The position numbers and the translations under genes were made by a program. The notes below the pieces were generated by a model. It did no database searches, was not told where the DNA came from, and saw only the letters and a list, made by a program, of their open reading frames with translations. From Candidatus Poribacteria bacterium (GTDB lineage Bacteria; Poribacteria; WGA-4E; WGA-3G): a DNA stretch of 64,000 nt. This document shows, in pieces, positions 1,914 through 18,259 of the stretch (position 1 is its first letter; each line of letters opens with the position of its first letter). The stretch lies in assembly GCA_965215265.1 (NCBI GenBank), contig OZ244048.1, forward strand, positions 992,001-1,056,000. The letters run 5' to 3'.

Positions 1914-2057
1914 GCAGGAAACAACATAGGGTATACGGAGATCTGCGGCGGTTTGAAGTTTCTGAATATAGATGTAAAAGATTAGACCAATCATGCCGTT
2001 ACAGACGCGTAGATGAACACATTAATCTAAGCTACTCCCCAGTTGAGGAGGATTAAA

Positions 2058-4169
2058 ATGTCACAAGAACGAACAGAGAAAGCCATCCAGGCACTCCAAA
2101 ACACGGCGGTATTGATTGGTAAATCTCAATCGCATCCGGTTGTCATTGCTGATGAGGAAGTCATCCCCGGTTTAGGATTAGACAATGATGCCGGTCTGTT
2201 GTTGGACAGTGTGGATTCGCTAAGAACATCCCAGCTACAAATTGCTTGTATAGGCAGGGCAAATAGCGGCAAGAGCACCCTAATTGAGGCGTTCGTAAAC
2301 AAGGAGATAGTTCAGGTACGGATAGTGCCCACCACTGGTGTGATTACCCGCATTGTTGGCGGCCCTGATTCTGATAAAGTCCGGCTCGTTGAAGGCGGGC
2401 GCGAGCGCGTTATTAGTCTAGAAGAATTCAATGATAAGTATTACCTCACAGAGAAAGAAGTCAATTCCATAGATGCCGGAGATCCTTTCCCTTTGCCCGA
2501 ACACATGGCAAAAGTTGATCACGCAACGCTGCAAATAGACTCGCCTTTCTTGAGACAAGGTATTTCGTTGGTTGATACACTCGGTTTTCAGGCGGGTGCT
2601 AAAGCTAAGATAATTACCAACAATTTTATTGACCGCGCAGATGTTATCTTTCTGGTACTCAATACCCGTGCTCTGCTTGATGCCTCCGAATTAGAATTAG
2701 TGAAAGAGATAGTAGGCAAGTGCACTGGTGATTCTACAAAGATGAGAAATATTTTCTTTGTTGCCAACAATTTCGCACTTGACGATGCAGAGAAACTATC
2801 TGTGGAAGAGACGTTGTTACGCCGTTTGAAACCTTACTTCACCGACGCGTCCGGGCAGTTTGATAAATCCCTCTACGATCGTCGTGTGTTTATAGTAGAC
2901 GCTAAGGCTGCCAGAGCCGTTAGACTCACGGGAGAATCATCAGGCGATGTGCTGGAAAAAACGGGCTTCTCGGCACTGAATAACGAAGTTCAGCAACTGT
3001 TTCGCGATAACGAAAATATCTCCCTCATCTTAGCAGGTGCAAGTCGGCGTGCAGCGTCCGCCGTTCAGAACGCACGAGGCACCATTGAAACTAAGAAAGT
3101 AGCCATCTTTCTAACCGAAGAAGATTGGAAAACAGCCGAAGCAGGTTTTAAAGAGCAACTGGATATAGCGCAAAAGAAAAGAGACGACACCGAAGCCACC
3201 ATTGTCAAATTCTTGAATGGGGCGAAAGAGAAATGCACCTTTCATTTTGAGCGCTATGCTACGGATTACTTTTTTGATGATCCGACTAGGGCTCGTACGG
3301 AGGAAAAGTGGCGTGCCCGATGGACAGAAGCATACACATCTACCGGAGTAGTCGGATTATTCGATATTGTAAAGGCCTCCTTTTCCAAAAACAGCCGGGC
3401 AGAATTGGAGGAAAAATTAGGTGTCGCAATCAAGAAAGTCTTTGATAACCTGTTTACCGGGTGGCAAAAAGCGTTTACGACATATCTAGAGGAGGATGAG
3501 GAACTGAAGACTTTGACAGGCGAACTTGAAGTGGAGCTCAAGGACTTCTCGGTAAAGGTCAATGAACTTCAGCGAACGATCACGAACAAGCCCACTGAGC
3601 CCGTTACGGATTTAGGCGAAAATAGAGAAAAAAAATTGCTACAGGCTTGCATAAGTATTCTGACACTTGATCTCAACCAGACAGTAGGACCGCTCATGCA
3701 GAGCAGCTGGAAGGCTACCCTAATACGTACATTGGCTCACGCTATAGGCCCAATCGTGGCAACACTAATAGCTGGGTTATTCGCTACGGGTCCTATAGCA
3801 GTCGCGGTAGGAATTGCCGTGTTAATAGCTGAAACCATTGCTGTGCTTTTGTGGGACCACTCTGTATTTGAGGCAAAACTCGCCAACCGCGTCGGTGAAG
3901 AATTAAGAAAGAAGATAATGCTAGCCATGCCTGATATAAAGTACGCGTTACATAACAAAATAGATGAAACCTTCAAGGACCGTTTGGCTAAGGTCTCACA
4001 ACGCCTGACTGCAGAAATTGATGAAGTAAAGCGTATATACGACACTTCAGTTGAGACAAGACGTGATGGGCAAGCCCAAATTGATAAAGAGGTGTCACGG
4101 TTAGAAGCTATTGACACCCTTCTCACCAAGCAATTTGAGGAAATCAGTGAGGTCGTGGGTGACGAATAA
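2058..4169 (+). CDS. Bacterial dynamin-like GTPase, full length
   Basis: G1 GRANSGKST, G2 PTT, G3 DTLG, G4-like ANNF; helical stalk with a hydrophobic paddle (IVATLIAGLFATGPIAVAVGIAVLI); RBS gaggag before ATG 2058. Confidence 0.85.
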   Translation: MSQERTEKAIQALQNTAVLIGKSQSHPVVIADEEVIPGLGLDNDAGLLLDSVDSLRTSQLQIACIGRANSGKSTLIEAFVNKEIVQVRIVPTTGVITRIVGGPDSDKVRLVEGGRERVISLEEFNDKYYLTEKEVNSIDAGDPFPLPEHMAKVDHATLQIDSPFLRQGISLVDTLGFQAGAKAKIITNNFIDRADVIFLVLNTRALLDASELELVKEIVGKCTGDSTKMRNIFFVANNFALDDAEKLSVEETLLRRLKPYFTDASGQFDKSLYDRRVFIVDAKAARAVRLTGESSGDVLEKTGFSALNNEVQQLFRDNENISLILAGASRRAASAVQNARGTIETKKVAIFLTEEDWKTAEAGFKEQLDIAQKKRDDTEATIVKFLNGAKEKCTFHFERYATDYFFDDPTRARTEEKWRARWTEAYTSTGVVGLFDIVKASFSKNSRAELEEKLGVAIKKVFDNLFTGWQKAFTTYLEEDEELKTLTGELEVELKDFSVKVNELQRTITNKPTEPVTDLGENREKKLLQACISILTLDLNQTVGPLMQSSWKATLIRTLAHAIGPIVATLIAGLFATGPIAVAVGIAVLIAETIAVLLWDHSVFEAKLANRVGEELRKKIMLAMPDIKYALHNKIDETFKDRLAKVSQRLTAEIDEVKRIYDTSVETRRDGQAQIDKEVSRLEAIDTLLTKQFEEISEVVGDE

Positions 4170-4262
4170 ATTCTGAGCGATTAGAACATTACCGAGGTGT
4201 GTGGAGCTTCTCTTCGCGGACGGGCGAAGCACGCCTTGCTTAAATTTAAGGAGCTAACTGCA

Positions 4263-4535
4263 ATGAAAAACATGTTTAGAACCTTAGCTTTACTGATGGT
4301 AAGCTTACTTGCCGTTTGCATGATTGGCTGTGACATGGAAGAGTACTCAAAGGGTATAGAGGTGAAGACGAAGTTCTCAAGATGGTCTATTTTATACTTT
4401 GCAGCAGTCGGCGGCTACCTCCTCTTCAAAGTAATTACCTCTCTGCATAAGTTTACAAAATCGAGCAAGACAAGGAGAGTGGAATTGTCAACGACCCGAA
4501 TGGCCAAACGGCAGTATCCGCCTCCTGAAGTCTAA
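4263..4535 (+). CDS. Small putative lipoprotein/membrane protein
   Basis: RBS aaggag; lipobox-like MIGC; second hydrophobic segment; signal peptide nearly identical to that of 59281..59937. Confidence 0.5.
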   Translation: MKNMFRTLALLMVSLLAVCMIGCDMEEYSKGIEVKTKFSRWSILYFAAVGGYLLFKVITSLHKFTKSSKTRRVELSTTRMAKRQYPPPEV

Positions 4536-4881
4536 CAGCATCATTATTTTACTGATTGTCGTGAAACTTAGTAGAATTCACACAAGTAAGTCGCCTTTCG
4601 GTGATTGAGCTAGCAAGGCAAGGGGGAGGCACTCGAGCACTGCGTGCCGGTGCAGCCGCCTTCAACAGAATAAGGAGATTGAACTACACACACGCGATGT
4701 CGTGGAGAGACCTGGATTGGGCTTGTCAACCTATTAGCTCTTCAATTCCTTGTAAACAAGGGGGGGCAAGCGTTCGAGTGTTTAATACTTAACACCCGTT
4801 ATATTACTGGTTTGGATGCTCCGGGTGTTAAACTACTGGCGGTTCGAAATACAAAGAGGTCAATTAAGGGGGTGATTATTT

Positions 4882-5007
4882 ATGGTTCCTGATGGTGGTC
4901 TTCCTGGTAATGCTGGTGGTGAGGGTTTTGGTTGTCTGGGCACTTTCTTGTTTGTTGTTGGTGTGATTCTTTTGATTGTCTTGCTTACGGTCTTAGGTGT
5001 GTCTTGA
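4882..5007 (+). CDS. Small single-TM peptide (41 aa)
   Basis: MVPDGGLPGNAGGEGFGCLGTFLFVVGVILLIVLLTVLGVS; purine-rich aagggggtg upstream. Confidence 0.35.
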   Translation: MVPDGGLPGNAGGEGFGCLGTFLFVVGVILLIVLLTVLGVS

Positions 5008-5279
5008 TACCCTTTCTCGTTTCGATGGCTCACGTGGGCTTTTTGACGCTTTGTTAACGCTCTTTCTTGCATTTCCCTTTTTTGTTGGTGGCTCACGTGG
5101 GCACCCTGCTGGCTCATGTGGCATCTTAAGGTGTCTCATTTCATGCTCTCTTGGCTGTGCGGTCGCATCGCGACCGTTCATTATGGGAAGCGATGAGTCA
5201 GTGCGTCTACAGGAAAGTGCTGACAGATGCAGAGATACAAGCACGTTTAGACCGTTGCTTAAGGAGAAGGCGAACGCAC

Positions 5280-5512
5280 CACTCGACTGTGCTGGAGCAG
5301 ACTGCAAAGCGATGGCAAGAAGGTATCACTGCGACTGAGGACTTGTCCCGAGAGTAGTTCTACGTCTCTCGGGTTCGTGCACGGACGCATTGGGGGTTGC
5401 GGACGCGTCTGAACAATAAGTTTGGAGCGTGTCTTCTCCGCGCGTTCCTGAATCAATGTTTAGGACACCCCTTAGAAGCCAGGAGATGAAAGGAAAACAT
5501 GATGAACATTAG
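5280..5512 (+). repeat. ~230-bp cassette linker repeated at ~13047-13279
   Basis: Near-identical from ctcgactgtgctggagcagactgc to ggaaaacatgatgaacatta; the last part (caggagatgaaaggaaaacatgatgaacattaga) also precedes 8149. Confidence 0.85.
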
Positions 5513-6301
5513 AATTGTCCCAGAAGGAATGGTGCTCATCCCCGGCGGCACCTTCCAGATGGGCAGCAACGATAACGATGCTGAGGCCTGGGATGAAGAA
5601 CAGCCTGTGCATACGGTGCATGTGGACGCGTTCTACATGGACACGCACGAAGTGACGAACGCCGAGTATCAAAGTTTTCTGCTGGCGAATCCCGAGTGGC
5701 AGAAGGGCATCTTCCGGATTTCCTCCACATTGATTATTACCTAGTGGATTGGAACTGGGACGGTAATAACTATCGTCCGGGTAAGGGGGACCATCCTGTG
5801 GAGAGTATGTCGTGGTATGGTGCGATGGCGTATGCTGCGTGGGCAGGTAAGCGTCTTCCAACGGAGGCGGAGTGGGAGTATGCGGCACGCGGTGGGTTAG
5901 TTGGTAAGAAATACCCGTGGGGAGACACGATTACGCCGAACGATGCGAACTACGGTAAGAATGTAGGCGGTACAAAGGCTGTGGGGAGTTATGCTGCGAA
6001 CGGGTATGGGCTGTTCGACATGGCAGGCAACGTGCCAGAGTGGTGTCTGGATGCGTATAATGTGGATTTCTATTCTCAGTCTCCGTCTCGGAATCCGCTG
6101 AGTGGTGTGTCTGGCAGTACGCTCGCGAATCTGGATGAGATTGTAGATAACTATATAATTATTAGGTCTGATCGCGTGTTGCGCGGCGGTAGCTGGGCCA
6201 CTAATTCACGCTACCTGCGCGCCGCGGCTCGCGGCGGGAATGCCCCGACGTTCACGGACTACGACATCGGGTTCCGGTGTGCGAGGGCTGTAACCCCTTA
6301 A
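5499..6301 (+). pseudogene. FGE-sulfatase/CLec-fold protein copy 1, frameshifted near 5706-5712; DGR-type variable 3' end
   Basis: ORFs 5499..5744 and 5696..6301 are the two halves; cagaagggcatcttccggat is 1 nt shorter than cagaagacgcagattccggat in paralogs; RLPTEAEWE and GFRC present. Confidence 0.8.
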
Positions 6302-6323
6302 ATCTTTAACCCTTTACCCCTTC

Positions 6324-6341
6324 CGAGCTGCGCGCAGCTCG
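6324..6341 (+). promoter_or_regulatory. GC-rich hairpin after the variable region (candidate DGR target-recognition hairpin); also 7231-7248 and 12674-12695
   Basis: Perfect palindrome cgagctgcgcgcagctcg after the conserved tail taaatctttaaccctttaccccttc. Confidence 0.55.
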
Positions 6342-6383
6342 AGTCGCGACACGAAGAATTTGAACAAAGGAGAATTTATCGTA

Positions 6384-7208
6384 ATGATTCGTACCGAAAC
6401 GCAGACACCAATTGTCCCAGAAGGAATGGTGCCCATCCCCGGCGGCATCTTCCAGATGGGCAGCAACGATGCTGATGCCTGGGATGACGAGCAGTGGGAT
6501 GACGAGCAGCCTGCGCATCCGGTGTTTATGGACACGTTCTACATGGACACGCACGAGGTGACGAATCTGGAATACAAACGTTTTGTGCTGGCGAACCCAC
6601 AGTGGCAGAAGACGCTGATTCCGGATGCACTCCAAAGTGTTTTTTACCTAAAACATTGGAGCGGTAATAACTATCCTTCGGGTGAGGCGAACCATCCGGT
6701 GGTATATGTGTCGTGGTATGCGGCGATGGCATATTCCGCGTGGGCAGGTAAACGTCTTCCGACGGAGGCAGAGTGGGAGAAAGCGGCACGGGCACGCGGT
6801 GGACGATCAGGGTTAAAGTATCCGTGGGGGAATACAATCTCCTCTGCGCGTGCGAACTACGATGATAATGTAGGGGATACGCGTCCTGTGGGGAGTTATG
6901 CGTCGAACGGGTATGGGCTGTATGATATGGCGGGGAACGTGTGGGAGTGGTGCCTGGATGAGTATGATGCGGATTTTTATTCTGCGTCTCCGTCTAGTAA
7001 TCCGCTGAGTGGTGTGTCTGGCAGTATGCTCGCGAATCTGGATGAGATTGTAGATGACTATACAAATATTAAGTCTCGTCGCGTGCTGCGTGGCGGGGGT
7101 TGGCTCGATTTTTCACGCGACCTGCGTGTCGCCGCTCGCTCCAAGAATACGCCAACGCTCACGAGCTCCGGCGTCGGGTTCCGGTGTGCGAGGGCTGTAA
7201 CCCCTTAA
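6384..7208 (+). CDS. FGE-sulfatase/CLec-fold protein copy 2 (putative DGR target)
   Basis: FQMGS, HEVTN, HPVVYVSW, RLPTEAEWEKAAR, DMAGNVWEW, RGG.W...GFRC; no catalytic FGE cysteine pair. Confidence 0.9.
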   Translation: MIRTETQTPIVPEGMVPIPGGIFQMGSNDADAWDDEQWDDEQPAHPVFMDTFYMDTHEVTNLEYKRFVLANPQWQKTLIPDALQSVFYLKHWSGNNYPSGEANHPVVYVSWYAAMAYSAWAGKRLPTEAEWEKAARARGGRSGLKYPWGNTISSARANYDDNVGDTRPVGSYASNGYGLYDMAGNVWEWCLDEYDADFYSASPSSNPLSGVSGSMLANLDEIVDDYTNIKSRRVLRGGGWLDFSRDLRVAARSKNTPTLTSSGVGFRCARAVTP

Positions 7209-7290
7209 ATCTTTAACCCTTTACCCCTTCCGAGCTGCGCGCAGCTCGAGTCGCGACACGAAAAATTTGAACAAAGGAGAATTTATCGTA

Positions 7291-8139
7291 ATGATTCGTA
7301 CCGAAACTCATATTGACATCGCGACTCGATTAGACGATATCGCGGTTTTGATTGGAGCAGAACAAGATAAACCCATTACGCTACACACAGGCGACACCGT
7401 GGAGAGACCTGGACTGGGCCTGTCAACCCACTCGACCGTGCTGGAGCAGACTGCAAAGCGATGGCAAAAAGGTATCACCAACATCCCCGTCGTCGGCTCC
7501 GTTTCTGTCGGTAAATCGACGCTCCTGAATGGCTTGTTGGACACGGACTTACCTGCAGGGAAAGGTGCCGTGACGGGGATAATCCTGGAACTCACGGCTG
7601 AAGCGTTTGACGACTTTAGAGTCTTTTATACGGATGGGACGGAAAAGACGATGACTGCCGAAGCATATCGAGACTTTAGTTGCGTATACACAAGAGACCC
7701 TTTCGTAGGCGGTGGGCCGTTTAGGCTCCCGGCGCGTTTGCAAACTGTTCAGTATGCGCGTTTAGGCAGGCTGCGCGGTTTACCGGAAAAAGGGCTCGTG
7801 TTCATTGATACCCTCGGTTTCAATGCGGGAGGTGCCGCCGCGGCGGTGACGCGCGGCTATCTCAGCAATGCGGATATCGTGATAATGGTTCTCAACAGTA
7901 ACCAACTCTTTACAGAGACAGATGTTGAGATGCTCCGGGATATCGTTGCCGGTGGCATTGAAAGAGAGGGCGTGGAAGACGCGTCGATTTTCTTCGTTAT
8001 CAACACTTTCGCTCAGGATACCGATGCGGATAAAGAGGAAGCGCTGAAGCAGGTGTCAGCGAAACTGGAAGGGCTCGTTCCTCCTGAAAAGAGAGACAAT
8101 CGCATTTTCTTGGTAGATGCGTGGACAGCCAGGAGATGA
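7291..8139 (+). CDS. Dynamin-like GTPase domain only (no stalk)
   Basis: GSVSVGKST, DTLG, FFVINTF; collinear with the N-half of 2058..4169; stops at a cassette junction. Confidence 0.75.
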   Translation: MIRTETHIDIATRLDDIAVLIGAEQDKPITLHTGDTVERPGLGLSTHSTVLEQTAKRWQKGITNIPVVGSVSVGKSTLLNGLLDTDLPAGKGAVTGIILELTAEAFDDFRVFYTDGTEKTMTAEAYRDFSCVYTRDPFVGGGPFRLPARLQTVQYARLGRLRGLPEKGLVFIDTLGFNAGGAAAAVTRGYLSNADIVIMVLNSNQLFTETDVEMLRDIVAGGIEREGVEDASIFFVINTFAQDTDADKEEALKQVSAKLEGLVPPEKRDNRIFLVDAWTARR

Positions 8140-8148
8140 AAGGAAAAC

Positions 8149-8988
8149 ATGATGAACATTAGAATTGTCCCAGAAGGAATGGTGCTCATCCCCGGCGGCA
8201 CCTTCCAGATGGGCAGCAAGGATGCCGAGGCCTTAAATGACGAGCAGCCTACGCATACGGTGTATGTGGACGCGTTCTACGACGAGCAGCCTGTGCATAC
8301 GGTGTATGTGGACGCGTTCTACATGGACACGCACGAAGTGACGAACGCCGAGTATAAAAGTTTTCTGCTGGCAAACCCGCAGTGGCAGAAGACGCAGATT
8401 CCGGATGCCCTCCATAATGGTCGTTATCTAAGCCATTGGGACGGTAATAACTATCCAGTGGGTGAGGCGGACCATCCCGTGACGTATGTGTCGTGGTATG
8501 GTGCGATGGCGTATGCTGCGTGGGCGGGTAAGCGTCTTCCAACGGAGGCGGAGTGGGAGAAAGCGGCACGCGGGGGGTTAGTTGATAAGAGATATCCGTG
8601 GGGGGACACGATTACGCCGAACGATGCGAACTACGGTAAGAATGTAGGCGGTACAACGGCTGTGGGGAGTTATGCTGCGAACGGGTATGGGCTGTTCGAC
8701 ATGGCAGGCAACGTGTCAGAGTGGTGTCTGGATGAGTGGGATGCGGATTTTTATTCTCAGTCTCCGTCTCGGAATCCGCTGAGTGGTGTGTCTGGCAGTA
8801 CACTCGCGAATCTGGCTGAGATTGTAGATAACTATACAAATATTGAGTCTGATCGCGTGTTGCGTGGCGGTAGTTGGTACTGTGCTTCACGACTCCTGCG
8901 TGTCACCTTTCGCCCCGAGATTACACCAACGTTCACGCTCTACCCCGCCGGCCTCGGGTTCCGGTGTGCGAGGGCTGTAACCCCTTAA
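8149..8988 (+). CDS. FGE-sulfatase/CLec-fold protein copy 3 (putative DGR target)
   Basis: Same motifs; 42-nt in-frame tandem duplication at 8239-8322. Confidence 0.9.
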   Translation: MMNIRIVPEGMVLIPGGTFQMGSKDAEALNDEQPTHTVYVDAFYDEQPVHTVYVDAFYMDTHEVTNAEYKSFLLANPQWQKTQIPDALHNGRYLSHWDGNNYPVGEADHPVTYVSWYGAMAYAAWAGKRLPTEAEWEKAARGGLVDKRYPWGDTITPNDANYGKNVGGTTAVGSYAANGYGLFDMAGNVSEWCLDEWDADFYSQSPSRNPLSGVSGSTLANLAEIVDNYTNIESDRVLRGGSWYCASRLLRVTFRPEITPTFTLYPAGLGFRCARAVTP

Positions 8989-9080
8989 ATCTTTACCCCT
9001 TTACCCCTTCCGAGCCGTATCCGGAGCGAATGGCACATAGAAGAATTTGAACGATGACTTAAAAAGGAGATTTTATCATA

Positions 9081-9857
9081 ATGAACAGTGCCGAAACTCA
9101 TATTGACAGAGAAGAAACAACCGAACCGCAGACACCAATTGTCCCAGAAGGAATGGTGCTCATCCCCGCAGGCGAGTTCCAGATGGGCAACGACGATCCT
9201 GTGCATACAGTGTATGTAGACGCGTTCTATATGGACACGCACGAAGTGACGAACGCTGAGTATCAAACTTTTGTGCTGGCGAACCCGCAGTGGCAGAAGA
9301 CGCTGATTCCGGATGTTCTCCACAATGGTGATTACCTAAACCATTGGGACGGTAATAACTATCCAGTGGGTATGGGGGACCATCCTGTGACGTATGTGTC
9401 GTGGTATGCGGCGATGGCATATTCCGCGTGGGCAGGGAAGCGTCTTCCAACGGAGGCAGAGTGGAAGAAAGCGGCCGGTGATCTGGCAGTCCCACGTCTG
9501 GGCGATGCGAACTATGCAGCCGGTACAACGGCTGTGGGGAGTTATGCTGCGAACGGGTATGGGCTATATGATATGGCAGGCAACGTGTGGGAGTGGTGTC
9601 TGGATGAGTGGGATGCAGATTTTTATTCTCAGTCTCCGTCTAGTAATCCGCTGAGTGGTGTGTCTGGCAGTATGCTCGCGAATCTGGATGAGATTGTAGA
9701 TGACTATACAAATATTAAGTCTCGTCGCGTGTCGTGTGGCGGGCCTTTGTACGCTGCTCCGTGGGGCCTGCGTGTCGCCAATCTCGGCAGGTATTCTCCA
9801 CCGGCGTTCACGCTCGACTGCTTCGGGTTCCGGTGTGCGCGGGCTGTTACTCCTTAA
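9081..9857 (+). CDS. FGE-sulfatase/CLec-fold protein copy 4 (putative DGR target)
   Basis: Same motifs; RGGSW degenerate (CGGPL); YPWG segment replaced. Confidence 0.85.
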   Translation: MNSAETHIDREETTEPQTPIVPEGMVLIPAGEFQMGNDDPVHTVYVDAFYMDTHEVTNAEYQTFVLANPQWQKTLIPDVLHNGDYLNHWDGNNYPVGMGDHPVTYVSWYAAMAYSAWAGKRLPTEAEWKKAAGDLAVPRLGDANYAAGTTAVGSYAANGYGLYDMAGNVWEWCLDEWDADFYSQSPSSNPLSGVSGSMLANLDEIVDDYTNIKSRRVSCGGPLYAAPWGLRVANLGRYSPPAFTLDCFGFRCARAVTP

Positions 9858-9925
9858 ATCTTCAACCCTTTACCCCTTCCGAGCTGCATGCAGATGGGCT
9901 TGCGACCTAAGGAGAATTTATCGTA

Positions 9926-11605
9926 ATGAATAGGGCAAAAACTTATATTGATATCGCGTATCTATTCAACGATATCAGGGATGCCCAAAGTGCTCTCGCT
10001 GAAGTACGTGCGACAGTGCCGGATGTGCTGAACACGTTTGACAGCCTCGTAGAAAAGATAGCCAGCCATACCTCTACGCTCTTTCAAAACGAATTCGCCC
10101 TAAAACTGGGAGACGGAGCGTTTTGGCGTGAAAAATGGACAAAAGGTGTATGGTCCCCCATCCGTTGGGCTAGTCTTTGGGCTAGTCTTGTGGGATTTGG
10201 TGTTACTAAGGGAGACGTAAACTTAATGATTCAACTGGCCCTAGAACAGGTGGTTCAGTTTAAACTAGATGCGTGGGTGGCAGCACTTCCCGACAAATTA
10301 ACGGAGCACCTCGATGCCCCTAAGGCACAGCTCCTCGTTAGAGATTTGGACTTGGCATTTGATGAGTTCCAGGTGCGTTTGAAGCGGATCGATTTACACG
10401 TGAAAGGCATTGGCAAGATCAATGCCGTCCAGAGTGATGAGATTGCGAATATAAAGCAGCTCATCTCCGACACTATAGGCTGCGGTTTTGCTATACCCGT
10501 AAGTTCTGCTATAGTTGCTGACTCGATTGTGGAGAATACTGTGTACATGCCTACGGCCCGCCTCATGGCCAATCACATCGCGGATGAAGCCAGGAAACAT
10601 TTCAACGCTACGGGTGCTTATATCGGTGCAGAAATTGAGAGAATAATGGTTGAGAATTTCGCTGTGCCTCGTCAAAAGCTAGCGGCGGTGCTTGAGGATG
10701 AAGTAACTAGGACAGAGCACCGTTTGGAGACGCTGGCGAATATCGTCCACGGCGAACTGATAAAAAAGGCGCGATTAGATTTAGAACCAGAAAAACCAAC
10801 CGAGCAGGAGATACGAGCACATCCGCCGGAGACACTAGTTGTTCCGAAAGGGATGGTGCTGATTCCCGCCGGCGAATTCCTGATGGGCAGCGATGCCGAG
10901 AATGACGAACAGCCTGTGCATCCGGTGTATGTAGACGCGTTCTATATGGATACGCACGAAGTGACGAACGCGGAGTATCAAACTTTTGTGCTGGCAAACC
11001 CGCAGTGGCAGAAGACGCAGATTCCGGATGCCCTCCATAATGGTCGTTATCTAAGCCATTGGGACGGTAATAACTATCCAGTGGGTGAGGCGGACCATCC
11101 CGTGACGTATGTGTCGTGGTATGGTGCAATGGCGTATGCCGCGTGGGCGGGTAAGCGTCTTCCAACGGAGGCGGAGTGGGAGAAAGCGGCACGCGGGGGG
11201 TTAGTTGATAAGAGATATCCGTGGGGGGACACGATTACGCCGAACGATGCGAACTACGGTAAGAATGTAGGCGGTACGACTTCTGTGTGCAGTTATGCTG
11301 CAAACGGGTATGGGCTGTCCGACATGGCAGGCAACGCTTGGGAATGGTGTCTGGATGAGTGGGATGCGGATTTTTATTCTCAGTCTCCGTCTCGGAATCC
11401 GCTGAGTGGTGTGTCTGGCAGTACACTCGCGAATCTGGATGAGATTGTAGATAAATATATAAATATTAAGTCTTCTCGCGTGTTGCACGGCGGTAGTTGG
11501 CTCAATCTTCCACGGGTCGTGCGTGTCGCCAATCGCTTCGGGTATACCCCGTCGTTCGCGCTCACCAACGTCGGTTTCCGGTGCGCGAGGGCTGTAACCC
11601 CTTAA
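9926..11605 (+). CDS. Fusion of dynamin-like stalk region and FGE/CLec domain (copy 5)
   Basis: N-terminal ~290 aa align by eye with 14847..16061 (VRATVPDVLNTFDSL/ARAKVPAVLEAFDNL; DLDLAFDEF/DLDRALDEF); C-terminal FGE domain near-identical to copy 3 except the variable end. Confidence 0.85.
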   Translation: MNRAKTYIDIAYLFNDIRDAQSALAEVRATVPDVLNTFDSLVEKIASHTSTLFQNEFALKLGDGAFWREKWTKGVWSPIRWASLWASLVGFGVTKGDVNLMIQLALEQVVQFKLDAWVAALPDKLTEHLDAPKAQLLVRDLDLAFDEFQVRLKRIDLHVKGIGKINAVQSDEIANIKQLISDTIGCGFAIPVSSAIVADSIVENTVYMPTARLMANHIADEARKHFNATGAYIGAEIERIMVENFAVPRQKLAAVLEDEVTRTEHRLETLANIVHGELIKKARLDLEPEKPTEQEIRAHPPETLVVPKGMVLIPAGEFLMGSDAENDEQPVHPVYVDAFYMDTHEVTNAEYQTFVLANPQWQKTQIPDALHNGRYLSHWDGNNYPVGEADHPVTYVSWYGAMAYAAWAGKRLPTEAEWEKAARGGLVDKRYPWGDTITPNDANYGKNVGGTTSVCSYAANGYGLSDMAGNAWEWCLDEWDADFYSQSPSRNPLSGVSGSTLANLDEIVDKYINIKSSRVLHGGSWLNLPRVVRVANRFGYTPSFALTNVGFRCARAVTP

Positions 11606-11696
11606 ATCTTTAACCCTTTATCCCTTCCGAGCCGTATCCGGAGCGAATGGCACATAGAAGAATTTGAACGATGACTTAAAAAGGAGATTTATCAGA

Positions 11697-12653
11697 ATGA
11701 GTCGTACCGAAACTCATATTGACAGAGAAGAACCAACCGAACCGCAGACACCAATTGTCCCAGAAGGAATGGTGCTCATCCCCGCGGGCGACTTCCAGAT
11801 GGGCAGCAACGATTATGATAACGAGCAGCCTGTGCATACGGTGTATGTGGACGCGTTCTATATGGATACGCACGAGGTGACGAACGCCGAGTATAAAACT
11901 TTTGTGCTGGCGAACCCGCAGTGGCAGAAGACGCGGATTCCGGATGTCTTCCACAATCGTTATTACCTATTCTATTGGGACTGGGACGGTAATAACTATC
12001 CAGTGGGTGAGGCGGACCATCCTGTGACGTGGGTGTCGTGGTATGCGGCGATGGCATATTCCGCGTGGGTAGGTAAGCGTCTCCCAACGGAGGCGGAATG
12101 GGAGAAAGCGGCGCGCGGTGGTAATGTAGGGGATACCCGTCCTGTCGGGAGTTATGCTGCGAACGGGTATGGGCTTGATATGGCCGGCAACGTGTGGGAG
12201 TGGTGTCTGGATGCGTATGATTGGGTGTCGTGGTATGCGGCGATGGCATATTCCGCGTGGGTAGGTAAGCGTCTCCCAACGGAGGCGGAATGGGAGAAAG
12301 CGGCGCGCGGTGGTAATGTAGGGGATACCCGTCCTGTCGGGAGTTATGCTGCGAACGGGTATGGGCTTGATATGGCCGGCAACGTGTGGGAGTGGTGTCT
12401 GGATGCGTATGATGCGGATTTTTATTCTGCGTCTCCGTCTAGTAATCCGCTGAGTGGTGTGTCTGGCAGTATGCTCGCGAATCTGGATGAGATTGTATCG
12501 GACTATACAAATATTAAGTCTAGTCGCGCGCTGCGTGGCGGGAGTTGGAACACTGATACCCGTCCCCTGCGCGCCGCTGATCGCACCGGGTGTACGCCGA
12601 TGTTCACGAGCAACGGCCTCGGGTTCCGGTGTGCGAGGGCTGTAACCCCTTAA
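11697..12653 (+). CDS. FGE-sulfatase/CLec-fold protein copy 6 (putative DGR target) with a 64-aa internal duplication
   Basis: Same motifs; exact 192-nt tandem repeat 12030-12221/12222-12413; YPWG segment deleted. Confidence 0.85.
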   Translation: MSRTETHIDREEPTEPQTPIVPEGMVLIPAGDFQMGSNDYDNEQPVHTVYVDAFYMDTHEVTNAEYKTFVLANPQWQKTRIPDVFHNRYYLFYWDWDGNNYPVGEADHPVTWVSWYAAMAYSAWVGKRLPTEAEWEKAARGGNVGDTRPVGSYAANGYGLDMAGNVWEWCLDAYDWVSWYAAMAYSAWVGKRLPTEAEWEKAARGGNVGDTRPVGSYAANGYGLDMAGNVWEWCLDAYDADFYSASPSSNPLSGVSGSMLANLDEIVSDYTNIKSSRALRGGSWNTDTRPLRAADRTGCTPMFTSNGLGFRCARAVTP

Positions 12654-12745
12654 ATCTTTAACCCTTTACCCCTTCCGAGCTGCAGGCAGCTCGGACCGAG
12701 AATGCAATGAAAAGTCCCGAGAAGAAAACACGGAAAAATCCCTAG

Positions 12746-12918
12746 AAAACTCGAGATTCGACCAAACTCAATGGCTCACTAGGCAGCGGCGCAATCGCCT
12801 CACCGGTGAGTCCTCTGACTATACTGAAATTGATCGTGAAAGGATTAATAAGAGTTTTCGGAAAGACTAATAAGTAAGTTAAGTGAGGTTTTGTCAATGA
12901 ATGAAAGCAAAAATCCCT
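12746..12918 (+). repeat. Leader block also present, rearranged, at ~86-310
   Basis: aaactcgagattcg..caaactcaatgg...aggattaataagagttttcggaaagactaa and taagtaagttaagtgaggttttgtcaatgaatgaaagcaaaaatccc occur at both sites. Confidence 0.8.
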
Positions 12919-13124
12919 CTGAAACGCATATTGACATCGCGACTCGATTAGACGATATCGCGGTTTTGATTGGAGCAGAACAGGATAAAGCCATTACGCT
13001 ACACACAGGCGACATCGTGGAGAGACCTGGACTGGGCTTGTTAACCTACTCGACTGTGCTGGAGCAGACTGCAAAGCGATGGCAAGAAGGTATCACTGCG
13101 ACTGAGGACTTGTCCCGAGAGTAG
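12897..13124 (+). pseudogene. Dynamin-like N-terminal leader fragment
   Basis: ETHIDIATRLDDIAVLIG...QTAKRW nearly identical to the 7291 leader, then stop. Confidence 0.65.
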
Positions 13125-13265
13125 TTCTACGTCTCTCGGGTTCGTGCGCGGACGCATTGGGGGTTGCGGACGCGTCTGAACAATAAGTTTGGAGCGTGTC
13201 TTCTCTGCGCGTGCCTGAATCAATGTTTAGGACACCCCTTAGAAGACAGGAGATGAAAGGAAAAC

Positions 13266-13706
13266 ATGATGAACATTATAGCAGAGCATCACAAAGTCAT
13301 TGCAGAGTGTGACAAAGTCATTGCCACGGCAGACGGCCATCGTGGCGAGCTTAACAAAGCACTTGCCCTGGTACACTACGGGCGCGGCAGAGCGAAGTTA
13401 ATCTTGCATAAAACCAAAGACGCGATATGGAATTCTGACCCAGACATTAAATACGCGATAGCCGCATTGGATTTTGACGCAGGCATTAAATACGCGATAG
13501 CCGATTTTGACACAGCCATTCACATCAACCCAAACGCGGCCGAGGCATACTACTATCGCGGCAAGGCGCGTTTAGCCTTGGATCACCTCGACTCCGCGAT
13601 AGCCGATTTTGACACAGCCATTCACATCAACCCAAAATATGTCGAGGCCCACCACTTGCGCGCAGAGGCGAAGTTAATGAGGGAGCGGGTTCCGGCGATG
13701 GTGTAG
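13266..13706 (+). CDS. TPR repeat protein
   Basis: Repeated AIADFDTAIHINP..AEAY..RG TPR units; same RBS and start (MMNI) as FGE copies 1 and 3. Confidence 0.8.
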   Translation: MMNIIAEHHKVIAECDKVIATADGHRGELNKALALVHYGRGRAKLILHKTKDAIWNSDPDIKYAIAALDFDAGIKYAIADFDTAIHINPNAAEAYYYRGKARLALDHLDSAIADFDTAIHINPKYVEAHHLRAEAKLMRERVPAMV

Positions 13707-13921
13707 AAAAGACGCGATTAGCCCGCATAGAATCTACGCTCCGTTCGCAATTCGAGGTGCTGAGTGTGCACGTCTACGGGCGAGTACTGACGGATGCCGA
13801 GATACGAACGCGTATAGAACCGGATCAAAGCAGCAGCGGCGAAAGCAGCGCTGGCTAAGACGAGGATGGCTGCGCAGGTGCGAGCGTGCCGGCGCAGCGG
13901 CTTTCAAGGAGATTTATCAGA

Positions 13922-14764
13922 ATGAGTCGTGTAGAAACTCATATTGACAGAGAAGAAACAACCCAACCGCAGACACCAATTGTCCCAAAAGGAATGGTGC
14001 TCATCCCTGCAGGCAACTTCCAGATGGGCAGCGATGCTGCTGATGCGTGGGATAACGAGCAGCCTGTGCATACGGTGCATGTGGACGCGTTCTATATGGA
14101 TACGCACGAAGTAACGAACGCCGAGTATAAAATTTTTGTGCTGGAGAACCCCAAGTGGCAGCATGTTGCGGATGCACCCGGTGATGATGTTCATCTGGCC
14201 GATTGGATTGGTAAAAATGACTATCCTTGGGGTGAGAGAGACCATCCTGTGACATATGTGTCATGGTATGGTGCAATGGCGTATGCGGCGTGGGCAGGTA
14301 AGCGTCTTCCGACGGAGGCAGAGTGGGAGAAAGCGGCACGCGGGGGGTTAGTTGGTAAGAAATACCCATGGGGGGACACGATAATGCCGAACGATGCGAA
14401 CTATTGGAGCGGCGGCACGGATAAGGATTATGTAGACGGTACAACGGCTGTGGGGAGTTATCCCCCGAACGGATATGGGTTATATGACATGGTCGGCAAC
14501 GTGTCAGAGTGGTGCCTGGATGAGTATAATGAGGATTTCTATTCTGCGTCTCCGTCTAGTAATCCGCTGAGTGGTGTGTCTGGCAGTATGCTCGCGAATC
14601 TGGATGAGATTGTAGATGACTATACAAATATTAAGTCTCGTCGCGTGTCGCGCGGCGGTGGCTGGTGCCTTAATTCATGGTACCTGCGCGCCGCGGAGCG
14701 CGAAGGGACTGCACCGAGTAGGGCCCTCAGCGGTTTCCGGTGTGCACGGGCTGTTACTCCTTAA
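13922..14764 (+). CDS. FGE-sulfatase/CLec-fold protein copy 7 (putative DGR target)
   Basis: Same motifs; shortened variable end. Confidence 0.9.
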   Translation: MSRVETHIDREETTQPQTPIVPKGMVLIPAGNFQMGSDAADAWDNEQPVHTVHVDAFYMDTHEVTNAEYKIFVLENPKWQHVADAPGDDVHLADWIGKNDYPWGERDHPVTYVSWYGAMAYAAWAGKRLPTEAEWEKAARGGLVGKKYPWGDTIMPNDANYWSGGTDKDYVDGTTAVGSYPPNGYGLYDMVGNVSEWCLDEYNEDFYSASPSSNPLSGVSGSMLANLDEIVDDYTNIKSRRVSRGGGWCLNSWYLRAAEREGTAPSRALSGFRCARAVTP

Positions 14765-14846
14765 ATCTTCAACCCTTTACCCCTTCCGAGCTGCATGCAG
14801 ATGGGCTTGCGACACGAAGAATTTGAACAAAGGAGAATTTATCATA

Positions 14847-16061
14847 ATGATTCGTACCGAAACTCATATTGACATCGCGACTCGATTAGACGATATCGCG
14901 GTTTTGATTGGATTAGAACAAGATAAAGCCATTACGCTACACACAGGCGACATCGTGGAGAGACCTGGACTGGGCTTGTCAACCCACTCGACCGTGCTGG
15001 AGCAGACTGCAAAGCGATGGCGAGAAGGTATCACTGCGATTGGGGCCTTGGAACATGCGATGGATAACGGTGTCCTCCGGGCAATAGATGCGGCTTCGCA
15101 GGAGATTGCGCTGAGAAGAAAGGTGCTCGAGATGGGGGCGGCGGCGCGTGAAAGGGCTATCGCGGCCTCGCAAATTTATCTCGCGAAAGCGCGTGCGAAA
15201 GTGCCGGCTGTGCTGGAAGCGTTTGACAACCTCGCAGAAGAGGTGGCGGCACGTGCCGAGACGCGCTTTCAAACGGAAGTGCCGGCTGTGCTGGGAAGAG
15301 CGTATTTGCGTGAAGAGCTGGAAAGAAGGTGGCGTGAAGTAGGGGAAATACTAAAAGCCAGCGTTGAAGAATCTGACGCACGGCACCTCGTCGGCGATTT
15401 GGATCGGGCCCTTGATGAGTTCTGGGCGGTTTTGAAGCGGGGCGATTTACACCTCAAACGCATTCGCCGGATTTATGTCGGCCCGAGTGATGCGACCGCG
15501 AATTGGAAGTGGCTCATCTTCGAAGCTATAGGCCTGGGTCTAGAGGATATCAGTGCTATCAACTTAGGCTATACTGCGGATATCAGTGCTATCAACTTAG
15601 GCTATACTGCGGACTTCCGCTCTTTTCTCAGAGGCGTATTTTTCCTTTGGCCTGAACAGGCATTTTTTTATAGATACGGCGCACAGAGTTTCGCTGCGCA
15701 TCGTGAAAAACTGGAGGCGGCACTTGATGACGAGATAAGTGGCAGAGAGAAACGCTTGCAGACGCTGCGTCAGGCAAACCGTGATGAGACTAACACTCAG
15801 GAAACACAAGCGAGATTAGAGGGCATAGCGTCCGCGCTGCGTTCGCAATGGGAAGCGATGAGTCAGCGCGTCTACGGAAAAGTGCTGACAGATGCAAAGA
15901 TACAAGCACGTTTAGAACCGTTGCTTAAGGAGAAGGCGAACGCATGGCAACGAGAAAAGAGTCGTTCCAGATGGGCGAAACAGAGCGTGAGTAGGCGAGC
16001 GCAGCTGCCCAACGTCCTCTCTATCAAGCACGGACGAAAAAACAGGATGTGGCGATATTGA
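14847..16061 (+). CDS. Dynamin-like protein lacking the GTPase domain (leader joined to stalk)
   Basis: Leader as in 7291 up to RW.EGIT, no P-loop, then a helical region similar to the C-half of 2058..4169. Confidence 0.7.
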   Translation: MIRTETHIDIATRLDDIAVLIGLEQDKAITLHTGDIVERPGLGLSTHSTVLEQTAKRWREGITAIGALEHAMDNGVLRAIDAASQEIALRRKVLEMGAAARERAIAASQIYLAKARAKVPAVLEAFDNLAEEVAARAETRFQTEVPAVLGRAYLREELERRWREVGEILKASVEESDARHLVGDLDRALDEFWAVLKRGDLHLKRIRRIYVGPSDATANWKWLIFEAIGLGLEDISAINLGYTADISAINLGYTADFRSFLRGVFFLWPEQAFFYRYGAQSFAAHREKLEAALDDEISGREKRLQTLRQANRDETNTQETQARLEGIASALRSQWEAMSQRVYGKVLTDAKIQARLEPLLKEKANAWQREKSRSRWAKQSVSRRAQLPNVLSIKHGRKNRMWRY

Positions 16062-16409
16062 TGGCATCCAGGCTGATACAATGAATCTCAACAATGTACA
16101 CGTAGTCTACACTTGGGCAAGACGAGAGGAGGGCAGACAACTGTGAAACTAGTTGGCTGGTTCTTGATAGTACTTGGGTCCGCAGGAGCGTTGGCAGTGC
16201 TGATATGAGGATTTTACAATGATCATGGAATTAGAGTTTTTGCGAAGTTAATATTGCCTAGAGCGTTTTTAGCAGGCTTCTGAAAAAAGTTGAAAAAAAA
16301 AGATTGTGCGAGACTGCAAAACAACGCAATTCCGGCAGTTTACGTTTGAAGAGCCAAACCGTGTAAACTCATTGTGAGCGGAGAGTTCCGTTTTCATAAA
16401 AGTGTTTCA

Positions 16410-16762
16410 ATGATGCCAAAACTCATATTGACATCGCGACTCGATTAGACGATATCGCGGCTTTGATTAGAGCAGAACAAGATAAACCCATTACGCTACA
16501 CACAGGCGACACCGTGGAGAGACCTGGACTGGGCCTATCAACCTACTCGGCCGTGCTAGAGGCGAGTGCACAGCGATGGCGAAAAGGTATCACCACCATA
16601 CCCGTCATCGGCTCGGTTTCTGTCGGTAAATCGACGTTCCTGAATGGCTTGTTGGGGACGGACTTACCAACAAATGGAGGTACAAGGAATCCGCCCTGCT
16701 TTGCAGGGGAAGGGAAGTTCTCCCCGCTTGCGGGGATGAATTCCCATCCTTCTCAAAGATGA
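16410..16762 (+). pseudogene. Truncated dynamin-like gene (leader plus P-loop)
   Basis: GSVSVGKST present; similarity ends at ~16670 beside two GC hairpins; upstream ATGs out of frame. Confidence 0.7.
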
Positions 16763-16858
16763 CAAATGCTCCTTGAACTCACGACTAAACCATTTGATGG
16801 TTCTCAAGTCTTTTTTCTGCAATGAAAAAACCAGAAGAGACGATAGGTGAGGTTCCGA

Positions 16859-18259
16859 ATGAAGAAATGGATGAGCAGTGTGCTATTAGCAAGTTGGTTA
16901 GTAGGAGGAATTGGATTTGCACTGTCTGGCAACGCCCAAGGGCAGTCTCCCGTAATAAACGGAGACGCAGAAATACTGTGGACCGGCAAGGCAGATATGG
17001 ATGAAATCCTCAAGGATATCGGTTATCGGGCGACGCGCCACATCGCCGAAGTGCCTGAGGTAGACGTGGTGTTTGTGGTTGACGGCTCGCTGCAGATGGT
17101 AGGATCGATTGGAATAGTTGAGAGAAACTTCGTTACGCTGCTAGACGCGCTTGAGAAGAAGACTTTAGATTACCGGTTTGCGATGCTCGCGTTTCGGTTG
17201 GTCAAAGGGCAACCGAATGTTAAGTTACTCCCATGGACTTTTGACCGTGCAGCGGTTGAAAAGCAATTGAGCTACATACGGCGTGTTTGGAGAGGCGACT
17301 TTGAGACAGGACACGGGCTAGATGCGCTGATGCAAGGATTAAATGAATTCAGGTTTAAGGCAGACGCAATCACGCAGTTCGTTATCATCACCAATTCGCC
17401 ACTTACAACCATCCGTCCTGAGGATGAAGCCCGAAAGAGAATGATCGAACAAATTATCAACAGTTGCTACCGGGATAAGGTTCAGCTCAACTTTATCGGC
17501 ATCCAGGACAGCGTGCAGATTGAACTGGCCGGCAAGACGGGCGGCAAATGGTATCCTATTATCCACGGGACATCACCGCCCCTAGATCCTGTCCAAATCC
17601 TGGGCATTCCTGATAGGCTAAAGCAACTGCGAGGGCATCCTGATAGGCTAAACAAGACGGTCGATAAAATTTTCGAACAAATCGCAGAATTTCTGATTGA
17701 CGGTGCCCCTAACAAATTGGATATTGTCTTCCTTTTTGATTGCAGTCGAAGCATGAGAAACAGGGTTGATGCCGTGTGTGATGGACTGGATGAGATGGTG
17801 ACGGTGTTGAACGCTGCACGGCTCGACTATCGGTTTGGGGTAATCCGTTTTTGGGCTAAACCGGGGCTCTCTGGACAAAGTACTGTCCTGGTTAGCAAGC
17901 CGCCGCTAAAAGTAGCGTCGGTGAAGAAGCTATTCCGCAGACCGAAAGCCGGAACAGAGCGTTTATTGGATGCCATTGTGGAAGGAGTGCCGAAATTGCG
18001 GACACCGGCAGAGCGTTCGCTGGTCTTGATTATCGTCACCGATGAACCCACGAATAAAGACGACCCAAATATGTGGACGGTAAATAAGGCAATTGAGGTT
18101 TGCCAGGGAGCACAGGCTCGCGTTTATGTCCTCGGAGGTCTTAGCTTTGCAAACGGAATTTTGAGGAGAGATCCATTCCAACGTAGAATCGCCGTATTAA
18201 CCAAAGGGGCGTACTACACGATGCGGGGGGCACCGATGTTCGATTTGCGTCTAGAGTGA
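16859..18259 (+). CDS. Secreted protein with two von Willebrand A domains
   Basis: Signal peptide; MIDAS-like DVVFVVDGSLQM and DIVFLFDCSRSM; IIVTDEP. Confidence 0.8.
   Translation: MKKWMSSVLLASWLVGGIGFALSGNAQGQSPVINGDAEILWTGKADMDEILKDIGYRATRHIAEVPEVDVVFVVDGSLQMVGSIGIVERNFVTLLDALEKKTLDYRFAMLAFRLVKGQPNVKLLPWTFDRAAVEKQLSYIRRVWRGDFETGHGLDALMQGLNEFRFKADAITQFVIITNSPLTTIRPEDEARKRMIEQIINSCYRDKVQLNFIGIQDSVQIELAGKTGGKWYPIIHGTSPPLDPVQILGIPDRLKQLRGHPDRLNKTVDKIFEQIAEFLIDGAPNKLDIVFLFDCSRSMRNRVDAVCDGLDEMVTVLNAARLDYRFGVIRFWAKPGLSGQSTVLVSKPPLKVASVKKLFRRPKAGTERLLDAIVEGVPKLRTPAERSLVLIIVTDEPTNKDDPNMWTVNKAIEVCQGAQARVYVLGGLSFANGILRRDPFQRRIAVLTKGAYYTMRGAPMFDLRLE

Follow-up and report, generated by a model that had tools for sequence, protein, structure and literature searches.

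A complete DGR with dozens of remote targets, probably recently active, in a Poribacteria-like genome

The tandem array of C-type-lectin genes

The window, a stretch of 64,000 nucleotides (positions 992,001 to 1,056,000 of contig OZ244048.1), contains an island of dynamin-like GTPase genes and FGE-type C-type-lectin (CLec) genes. A complete dynamin-like gene (2043-4169, + strand, 708 aa) stands at the head of the island. It matched Dynamin_N with an E-value of 4.5e-15 and Dynamin-like_hel_bact with 7.1e-06, the latter under the cut-off of that model. A dynamin-type GTPase together with a helical domain was found at this locus only; most of the island's dynamin-like genes are fragments. A second paralogue is represented by a GTPase-domain fragment of 290 aa (7267-8139, + strand) and by further pieces at about 12918-13100, at 14823-16061 and at 16415-16681, all of which are fragments. 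The array probably grew by unequal recombination, in which each unit paired a dynamin-like GTPase gene with a CLec gene.

All seven CLec genes are on the + strand, and each has a VR core that can be aligned with the template repeat (TR) described below. Copy 1 (5499-6301; VR core 6194-6268) carries a 1-nt frameshift near 5706, which divides it into the ORFs 5499-5744 and 5696-6301; the missing base was seen by alignment to copy 3. Copy 2 (6360-7208, 282 aa; VR core 7101-7175) is intact and matched PF03781 with an E-value of 1.3e-61. Copy 3 (8149-8988, 279 aa) has a 14-aa tandem duplication close to the N-terminus and, in its VR core (8875-8955), a 6-nt insertion that the TR lacks. Copy 4 (9081-9857, 258 aa) shows internal deletions, a 3-nt insertion in the VR core (9747-9824) and TTG in place of the W codon. 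Copy 5 (9926-11605; VR core 11498-11572) encodes a 559-aa fusion of an FGE-type CLec domain to a helical segment, which is related to the broken dynamin-like paralogue. Copy 6 (11664-12653, 329 aa; VR core 12546-12620) has four Pfam stretches and an internal duplication of about 63 aa. In copy 7 (13886-14764, 292 aa), the VR core (14663-14731) lacks 6 nt relative to the TR. A common constant C-terminus closes each of the seven genes at the last gene coordinate given for it. Between the constant GGGTTC block and a point 80 nt beyond the stop codon, the genes are 71-99% identical, and the distance from the end of the VR core to the stop codon is 33 nt in 7/7 copies.

PF03781 was matched by the five copies scanned out of the seven, with E-values of 1e-61 to 1e-74. 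In addition, copy 2 matched the TvpA chain 2y3c with an E-value of 1.1e-09. TvpA is a lipoprotein. Unlike TvpA of Treponema denticola, the window copies have neither a signal peptide nor a lipobox, although many targets elsewhere in this genome carry them. A catalytic FGE was considered and rejected: in the alignment of copy 2 with 6s07, the two-cysteine segment of the latter, which we take to contain the catalytic cysteines of formylglycine-generating enzyme, faces a 3-residue gap and variable residues. Since the enzyme cysteine pair and a signal peptide are both absent, the window products, judged from their sequences, are probably FGE-fold C-type-lectin domains of about 260-290 aa that serve as cytoplasmic binding modules.

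The DGR cassette outside the window

The genome is a single Poribacteria-like contig of 4.83 Mb with a completeness of 95.4%. The sequence-only reading had found no visible TR or RT, which is correct for the window but not for the genome. A single RVT_1 match is located outside the window at genome positions 1420096-1420737, and the TR, about 117 nt in length, at about 1421033-1421149; the latter is the sole adenine-rich copy of the repeat. The RT is an intact ORF of 354 aa. Its best solved relative is 8ub7, presumably the Bordetella phage bRT, with 215.9 bits, against 77.5 bits for the best group II intron RT; no NCBIfam RT model matched it at the cut-off. The nearest relatives are three sequences from two MAGs (83% and 64-68% identity), followed by mostly cyanobacterial ones at about 51-60%. 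The RT adjoins an Avd ORF, which matched PF22296 (bAvd; E-value of 2.6e-23) and NCBIfam NF033474 DivGenRetAVD (120.2 bits; cut-off, 80).

In the cassette, two targets are followed by avd, the RT and the TR, after which comes a conserved stretch of about 170 nt. The cassette shares chromosome and strand with the array and is located about 415-425 kb downstream. In a classical cassette the targets adjoin the RT; the array does not, whereas the two targets within the cassette do. The RT is present in only 3 of 41 related genomes, a point against the reading favoured below. No near-identical relative was found among the 41 genomes of the order, in which the best foreign match was 70-72%.

A template had been predicted from the codon pattern of the seven genes, and it was found in the same genome beside the Avd gene and the RT. 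When the predicted template and the real TR were compared by eye, 5 of 87 bases differed and the ambiguous letters were compatible. These differences affect five of the 29 codons (codons 5, 15, 18, 20 and 25), by one base each; the last of them, codon 25, matches the TR of a related genome. This case shows that the codon pattern by itself suffices to recognise an array of DGR targets and to predict nearly every base of the template.

Adenine-specific differences from the template

When the seven VR cores are compared with the TR, 151 of 227 adenines and 28 of 292 other bases are altered (Fisher p about 1e-43), which bears out the DGR adenine signature claimed for these tandem genes. The W (or TTG) codons are at 6194, 7101, 8875, 9747, 11498, 12546 and 14663, and codons 1, 2, 3 and 6 after them, as well as the later NNG followed by NNT, read as the sequence-only reading had listed them. 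The description of copies 3 and 5 as almost identical upstream was roughly right: their identity is 94.5% over the 400 nt before the VR and 60.5% in the core. The template has 12 AAY (AAC or AAT) codons. At these codons, altered bases number 116 of 164 for positions 1 and 2 but only 3 of 82 for position 3, and all three of the latter belong to copy 7, in which the core has a 6-nt deletion.

The copies differ in how well they agree with the TR. Altered adenine and non-adenine sites amount to 20/33 and 1/42 in copy 1, 22/33 and 4/42 in copy 2, 23/33 and 5/42 in copy 3 (with six gap columns), 25/33 and 6/42 in copy 4, 23/33 and 4/42 in copy 5, 20/33 and 1/42 in copy 6, and 18/29 and 7/40 in copy 7. 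Among the seven, only copies 1 and 6 agree with the present TR at the non-adenine sites. The cores of copies 2-5 and 7 have 4-7 non-adenine mismatches, and three of them have indels.

Hairpin elements and template states

A 16-nt constant block is common to the TR and the VRs, beyond which their sequences differ (IMH versus IMH*). A hairpin element follows the VRs, and none is present after the TR. The hairpin is intact in 3/7 window copies: copy 1 (6323-6342, + strand; a 7-bp stem and a 4-nt loop, with a DNA fold of -7.1 kcal/mol for the 20-mer), copy 2 (7230-7249) and copy 6 (12675-12694; an 8-bp stem, fold -8.2). It is disrupted in copy 3 (9010-9029, fold -3.0), copy 4 (9879-9898, fold -1.1), copy 5 (11627-11646, fold -3.0) and copy 7 (14786-14805, fold -1.1). 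Genome-wide, the two arms co-vary, and the hairpin exists in a G:C version (10 copies) and a T:A version (4 copies).

Where the present TR has GCC GCT, those of two related genomes have GTC GCC, and so do window copies 2, 4 and 5. Copies 2-5 share bases with these two TRs; therefore, an older state of the template seems to have written them. Copies 1 and 6, which retain the hairpin, were written from the present TR and are likely still receptive. Copy 2 retains the hairpin in combination with the older template state. Copies 3, 4, 5 and 7 combine loss of the hairpin with indels or older template states and are likely retired. This status is unproven, since live targets with non-adenine changes and indels are reported in the text of Wu et al. 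2018. Altogether, the array is likely a mix of live and retired targets. Since copy 1 is frameshifted and copy 6 is internally duplicated, the two best-matching copies might not yield a working protein.

As sources of population variants, four runs of one study, which contained 68-73% of the words, and one raw-read run were identified. The unique parts of the array (for example, 9877-10963) were identical in three sequencing runs; the contigs break at the repeats, where about 40 paralogues are indistinguishable. Joints in the runs, such as that of 6196 to 6264, could represent variant VRs or paralogues. The raw-read run gave unrelated reads only, with 0 of 282 at 99% identity and 196 under 90%. 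When metagenome contigs were scanned with the 300 aa at the N-terminus of copy 5, which are unique, 139 stretches matched, but no relative was among them.

VR-like segments in the whole genome

A blast search with the TR gave 42 rows. The self-match of the TR was dropped and the pairs 1263656/1263742 and 3264285/3264320 were merged, which left 39 sites. These VR-like segments are spread over about 27 genes or gene remnants, and the Fisher p is below 1e-3 in 37 of the 39; here, as in the window, the mismatches fall mainly at template adenines, as had been expected. At most one non-adenine mismatch to the TR is seen in 11 of the 39, including window copies 1 and 6. One more 3' end of an FGE domain, at about 1794041, has no TR match and is outside this count.

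The TR-perfect paralogues are only 66-90% identical across the 400 nt upstream; therefore, their non-adenine identity to the TR is due to recent copying and not to shared ancestry. Four of these paralogues sit 375 kb to 3.4 Mb from the TR, which shows action at a distance in this genome. Recurrent non-adenine differences, common to many VRs genome-wide, are located between fully diversified adenine sites. In the three-domain proteins, the hairpin is present at the last domain only, and the first-domain segments are nearly identical across five paralogues. These five segments, evidently undiversified, show the adenine bias as well, so that the bias alone is weak evidence for any single copy.

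Proposed mechanism and alternatives

The observations above make it very probable that the seven genes are targets of one chromosomal DGR, that of the downstream cassette. By analogy with studied DGRs, the TR would be transcribed, and the RT and Avd would make a cDNA in which the template adenines are read at random. This cDNA would replace the last 100 nt or so of the coding region in any gene whose 3' constant block (IMH) matches, and a GC-rich hairpin that follows some 55 nt later would make the step efficient. These homing steps are modelled on the studied systems. A stop codon, an IMH-like block and a hairpin site are present in every one of the seven genes; therefore, each was probably written separately. 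As a whole, the system is probably a complete and recently active DGR with dozens of remote targets. The earlier idea of a seven-target array served in trans thus holds as to the remote DGR, but the live part was overstated: only copies 1 and 6 match the present TR, the hairpin is lost in 4/7 copies and several genes are damaged.

It is also conceivable, though unlikely, that the whole window array is a fossil and that service is now confined to targets with the T:A hairpin, the cis target among them. The four VRs with zero non-adenine mismatches all have the T:A hairpin, which no window copy has, and three of these four share an identical downstream flank. The disruption of four of the seven window hairpins, the frameshift in copy 1, the rearrangements in copies 4 and 6 and the fragmentary dynamin-like genes point in the same direction. 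However, copies 1 and 6 have one non-adenine mismatch in 42, their G:C hairpins are intact, and their gene bodies are just 77% and 67% like the cis target. Copies near-perfect to the TR within such divergent bodies must have been written after the TR reached its present state.

The GTC GCC copies (2-5) might instead be served by a second template or a second DGR that is missing from the assembly or present in part of the population, which we consider improbable. The recurrent non-adenine differences shared between diversified adenines mean that a template with those bases once existed, and the completeness of the assembly leaves some room for it. The genome is nevertheless one contig with a single RVT_1 match, and no other adenine-rich copy of the repeat is among the 42 blast rows. 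Since the same bases occur in the TRs of two related genomes, an ancestral state of one TR is the simpler explanation. An explanation without a retroelement, in which the paralogues simply diverged under diversifying selection or by gene conversion, would suit variable sites in a ligand-facing loop region, where paralogues often diverge, but it is refuted by the adenine bias and the AAY counts: position 3 is kept in 79 of 82 cases while positions 1 and 2 are mostly altered, the reverse of usual codon divergence, and the unchanged bases are those of a non-coding adenine-rich repeat beside the RT and Avd genes.

Comparison with known systems

The DGR with remote targets that we favour is a known kind of targeted hypermutation system, and it is notable for its target number and its host lineage. 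The antibody-like repertoire suggested earlier is not a new principle, because remote multi-target DGRs are already known; remote targets are described as an accepted DGR variant by Wu et al. 2018 (PMC5758913). The largest target counts in the text of that paper are eight in tandem and seven non-adjacent, and its supplementary tables may exceed these. By its own account, the largest metagenome survey was unable to find remote targets (Roux et al. 2021). Literature searches, judged by title and the start of the abstract, gave no DGR in Poribacteria or sponge symbionts; a hit for Poribacteria concerned cold-seep viruses. A broader interpretation can be offered tentatively: no single DGR described so far would have as many targets as this one template (39 segments, 11 of them matching), the differing bases would form a dated stack of writing events, and the leaderless CLec modules of the window, interleaved with dynamin-like GTPase genes, would be a set of cytoplasmic receptors diversified by a DGR, in a lineage of sponge symbionts without a reported DGR.

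The Treponema denticola DGR, which comprises TvpA and remote targets, likewise has the VR at the C-terminus of an FGE-type C-type-lectin fold (PMC5758913). The present genome has far more TR-like segments (39, of which 11 match the present TR), with seven in one tandem array. Cyanobacterial DGRs, as described by Vallota-Eastman et al. 2020 (PMC7517822), share CLec targets, remote targets, intragenomic target duplication as paralogues and mostly cytosolic products. That class is reported there as 58 DGRs with 90 targets in 52 genomes, compared with one DGR and 39 VR-like segments here. The cyanobacterial targets often have kinase or orthocaspase domains (PMC7517822), whereas those of the window consist of the CLec domain alone or of its fusion to a dynamin-like helical fragment. 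The present host is Poribacteria-like, not cyanobacterial; the nearest RTs after those of the MAGs are mostly cyanobacterial.

In Thiohalocapsa PB-PSB1, some targets are apparently no longer diversified, as seems to be the case here (Dore et al. 2024, PMC10907252). In that bacterium, several DGR loci are described, each equipped with an RT, and diversification was measured in metagenomes (PMC10907252), whereas the present system has a single RT and is known from the genome sequence. With the DGR of Bordetella phage BPP-1, as presented in the text of Wu et al. 2018, it shares Avd, RT and TR, adenine-specific mutagenesis, a GC-rich constant block, the distinction of IMH and IMH*, and an inverted repeat, rich in GC, that follows the VR but not the TR. 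In contrast to BPP-1, the present DGR is cellular and not phage-borne, its order is target-avd-RT-TR, it has dozens of targets, and the hairpin begins about 55 nt past the last variable codon. The template-perfect, older-state and hairpin-less copies constitute a natural series on what keeps a remote target receptive.

Location of the DGR cassette

The genome of this Candidatus Poribacteria bacterium (G000) is one contig of 4,833,177 bases, in which the window is G000:C1:992001-1056000. Below, positions in the array and its island are in window numbering and all others in genome numbering. A profile search of the whole genome gave one RVT_1 match, at 1420096-1420737. The match belongs to an intact RT ORF of 354 aa, and close to it are an ORF of 118 aa and two FGE-type genes. 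The shorter ORF encodes Avd (PF22296, E 2.6e-23; NCBIfam DivGenRetAVD, 120.2 bits, with a cut-off of 80). The best solved relative of the RT is 8ub7 (215.9 bits), which we take to be the Bordetella phage enzyme; the best group II intron RT scored 77.5. An adenine-rich repeat copy, the template, lies about 90 nt after the RT at approximately 1421033-1421149, about 415-425 kb downstream of the array. Its core of 75 nt includes 33 adenines, and 12 of the codons are AAC or AAT.

The sequence-only reading had reconstructed a template from the seven window genes and had proposed searching the rest of the genome for it beside a DGR-clade RT and an Avd gene. All three were found together in the same genome, and the reconstruction, compared by eye, has five single-base differences from the real template over 29 codons. 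The seven genes do form a DGR target array, whose RT and template, absent from the window, are now located elsewhere in the genome; the DGR mechanism itself is already known.

Directly 3' of the template, at approximately 1421466-1422236 (2871-3641 of L001, the G000 stretch around the template), is a gene for a putative transposase of the YhgA-like family (PF04754, E 1.3e-27). When the template regions of the three RT-bearing genomes are aligned, about 170 nt 3' of the template (approximately 1421170-1421340; L108:2790-2960) are more conserved than the template itself. This stretch may form a structured 3' region of the DGR RNA; at its end are a terminator-like inverted repeat and a T run. An element with a terminator-like inverted repeat is common to the 3' side of the template and several targets (near 212079, 762319, 1264586, 4143598, and 4393899).

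Adenine-biased divergence of the window copies

The coordinates and codon lists first noted for the seven copies were exact on re-reading. When their cores are aligned with the template, mismatches fall mainly at adenines, as had been anticipated: 151 of 227 template adenines are changed, versus 28 of 292 other bases. In the 12 AAY codons, the first and second positions are changed at 116 of 164 sites and the third at 3 of 82, all three in copy 7, whose core has a 6-nt deletion. Ordinary codon divergence would give the opposite pattern, so plain paralogue drift is ruled out. Codon 20 is NTC in all six scorable copies despite AAC in the template, a hint that the products came under selection once they had been written.

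Architecture of the target genes

The seven plus-strand genes, from 5499 to 14764, encode the Pfam FGE-sulfatase domain (E 1e-61 to 1e-74 in the five copies scanned). The last ten residues and the stop are identical in all seven, and between the constant GGGTTC block and a point 80 nt beyond the stop the copies are 71-99% alike. The approximately 75 nt preceding this constant end are strongly divergent. None of the seven has a hydrophobic N-terminus. Copy 1 is frameshifted by 1 nt near 5706 (+), copy 3 contains a tandem duplication of 14 aa, copy 4 has deletions and lacks the tryptophan, copy 5 is fused to a helical segment, and about 63 aa of copy 6 are duplicated. Contigs from three sequencing runs suggest a tandem-duplication variant of 12747-12917, in the spacer that follows copy 6: they connect 12917 back to 12747 through 25 other letters.

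In alignment with a solved enzyme, the segment bearing the two cysteines of the enzyme is replaced in the target by a gap and variable residues. A catalytic FGE enzyme is therefore rejected, and the copies are predicted to be binding modules.

Target-site element

A 16-nt GC-rich block 3' of the core is common to the template and targets, which diverge beyond it. About 55 nt after the core lies an inverted repeat whose 7-8-bp stem encloses a 4-nt loop. Counted by hand over the genome, hairpin versions with both arms changed are intact in 10 copies (G:C) and 4 copies (T:A), and three copies are altered on one arm only. Three of the window copies (1, 2, and 6) retain an intact hairpin; in the other four (3, 4, 5, and 7) it is disrupted.

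Targets across the genome

The template matched 39 VR-like segments genome-wide, with an adenine bias of p<1e-3 in 37. Eleven have at most one mismatch among about 42 non-adenine sites; window copies 1 and 6 and the target beside the RT are in this group, as are targets at distances of 375 kb to 3.4 Mb. Since the template-perfect paralogues are just 66-90% alike over 400 nt upstream, their non-adenine identity to the template must stem from recent copying. This is the best evidence here of DGR action at a distance.

Many targets elsewhere resemble lipoproteins, and in seven cases two or three FGE domains are encoded by a single ORF. Those with three domains (925-1139 aa; 1261694-1264594, 1562231-1565029, 1664327-1667746, 1793068-1795965, 4140853-4143630, and 4441382-4444186) have the full downstream element and hairpin after the last domain only. 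The first-domain segments, which lack this element, hardly differ among five paralogues and so provide an internal control for the importance of the downstream element. Five of the six ORFs start with a hydrophobic lipoprotein-like segment and the 1139-aa ORF with a signal-peptide-like one; second-domain segments are nearly the same in four.

Two remote VRs (4150258-4150365 and 4795102-4795218) are template-identical at all non-adenine sites, and small indels in them shift the C-terminal reading frame. Remnants at 2998809-2998873, 4393837-4393918, and 4394984-4395033 have only the constant 3' block and downstream element (with the hairpin in two) and no recognisable VR core.

Probable layering of template history

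Non-adenine differences from the template recur identically in many VRs. Copies 2, 4, and 5 have GTC GCC where the template has GCC GCT, and copy 3 has GTC ACC. Because GTC GCC is present in the templates of G005 and G025, the only two related genomes with this RT, the simplest source for copies 2-5 would be an earlier state of the G000 template. Core indels are found in copies 3, 4, and 7. Copies with indels or non-adenine changes might be regarded as dead; this is countered by apparently live DGR targets with both kinds of change, described in passages of Wu et al. (2018).

Dynamin-like island around the array

The array lies within an island (2043-18259) that includes a complete dynamin-like GTPase (Pfam scan), fragments of a second, a TPR protein (domain search), and, at its end, a 470-aa VWA-domain protein (16847-18259; E 2.6e-12) with a hydrophobic N-terminus. 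The fragments, N-terminal stretches of 60-100 aa and helical pieces of one paralogue, are repeated through the island (12918-13100, 14823-15047, and 16415-16681; 10310-10744 and 13709-13825); a whole-genome search found none outside it. Growth by unequal recombination would fit this arrangement, because the FGE genes and the dynamin-like fragments have the same leader and first codons.

Relatives

What is new is the number of targets, the layering of template states, and the lineage of the host; the first is relative to counts in main texts, and supplementary tables may list larger ones. The nearest RT (83% identical) is on the chromosome of an uncultured Poribacteria bacterium that the genome search assigned to the same family. 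In that genome, a template of its own is accompanied by 15 VR-like segments. Non-adenine mismatches to that template number zero in two segments and two in five. Among the 41 genomes searched, the RT was found in 3 and FGE-like DNA in 38.
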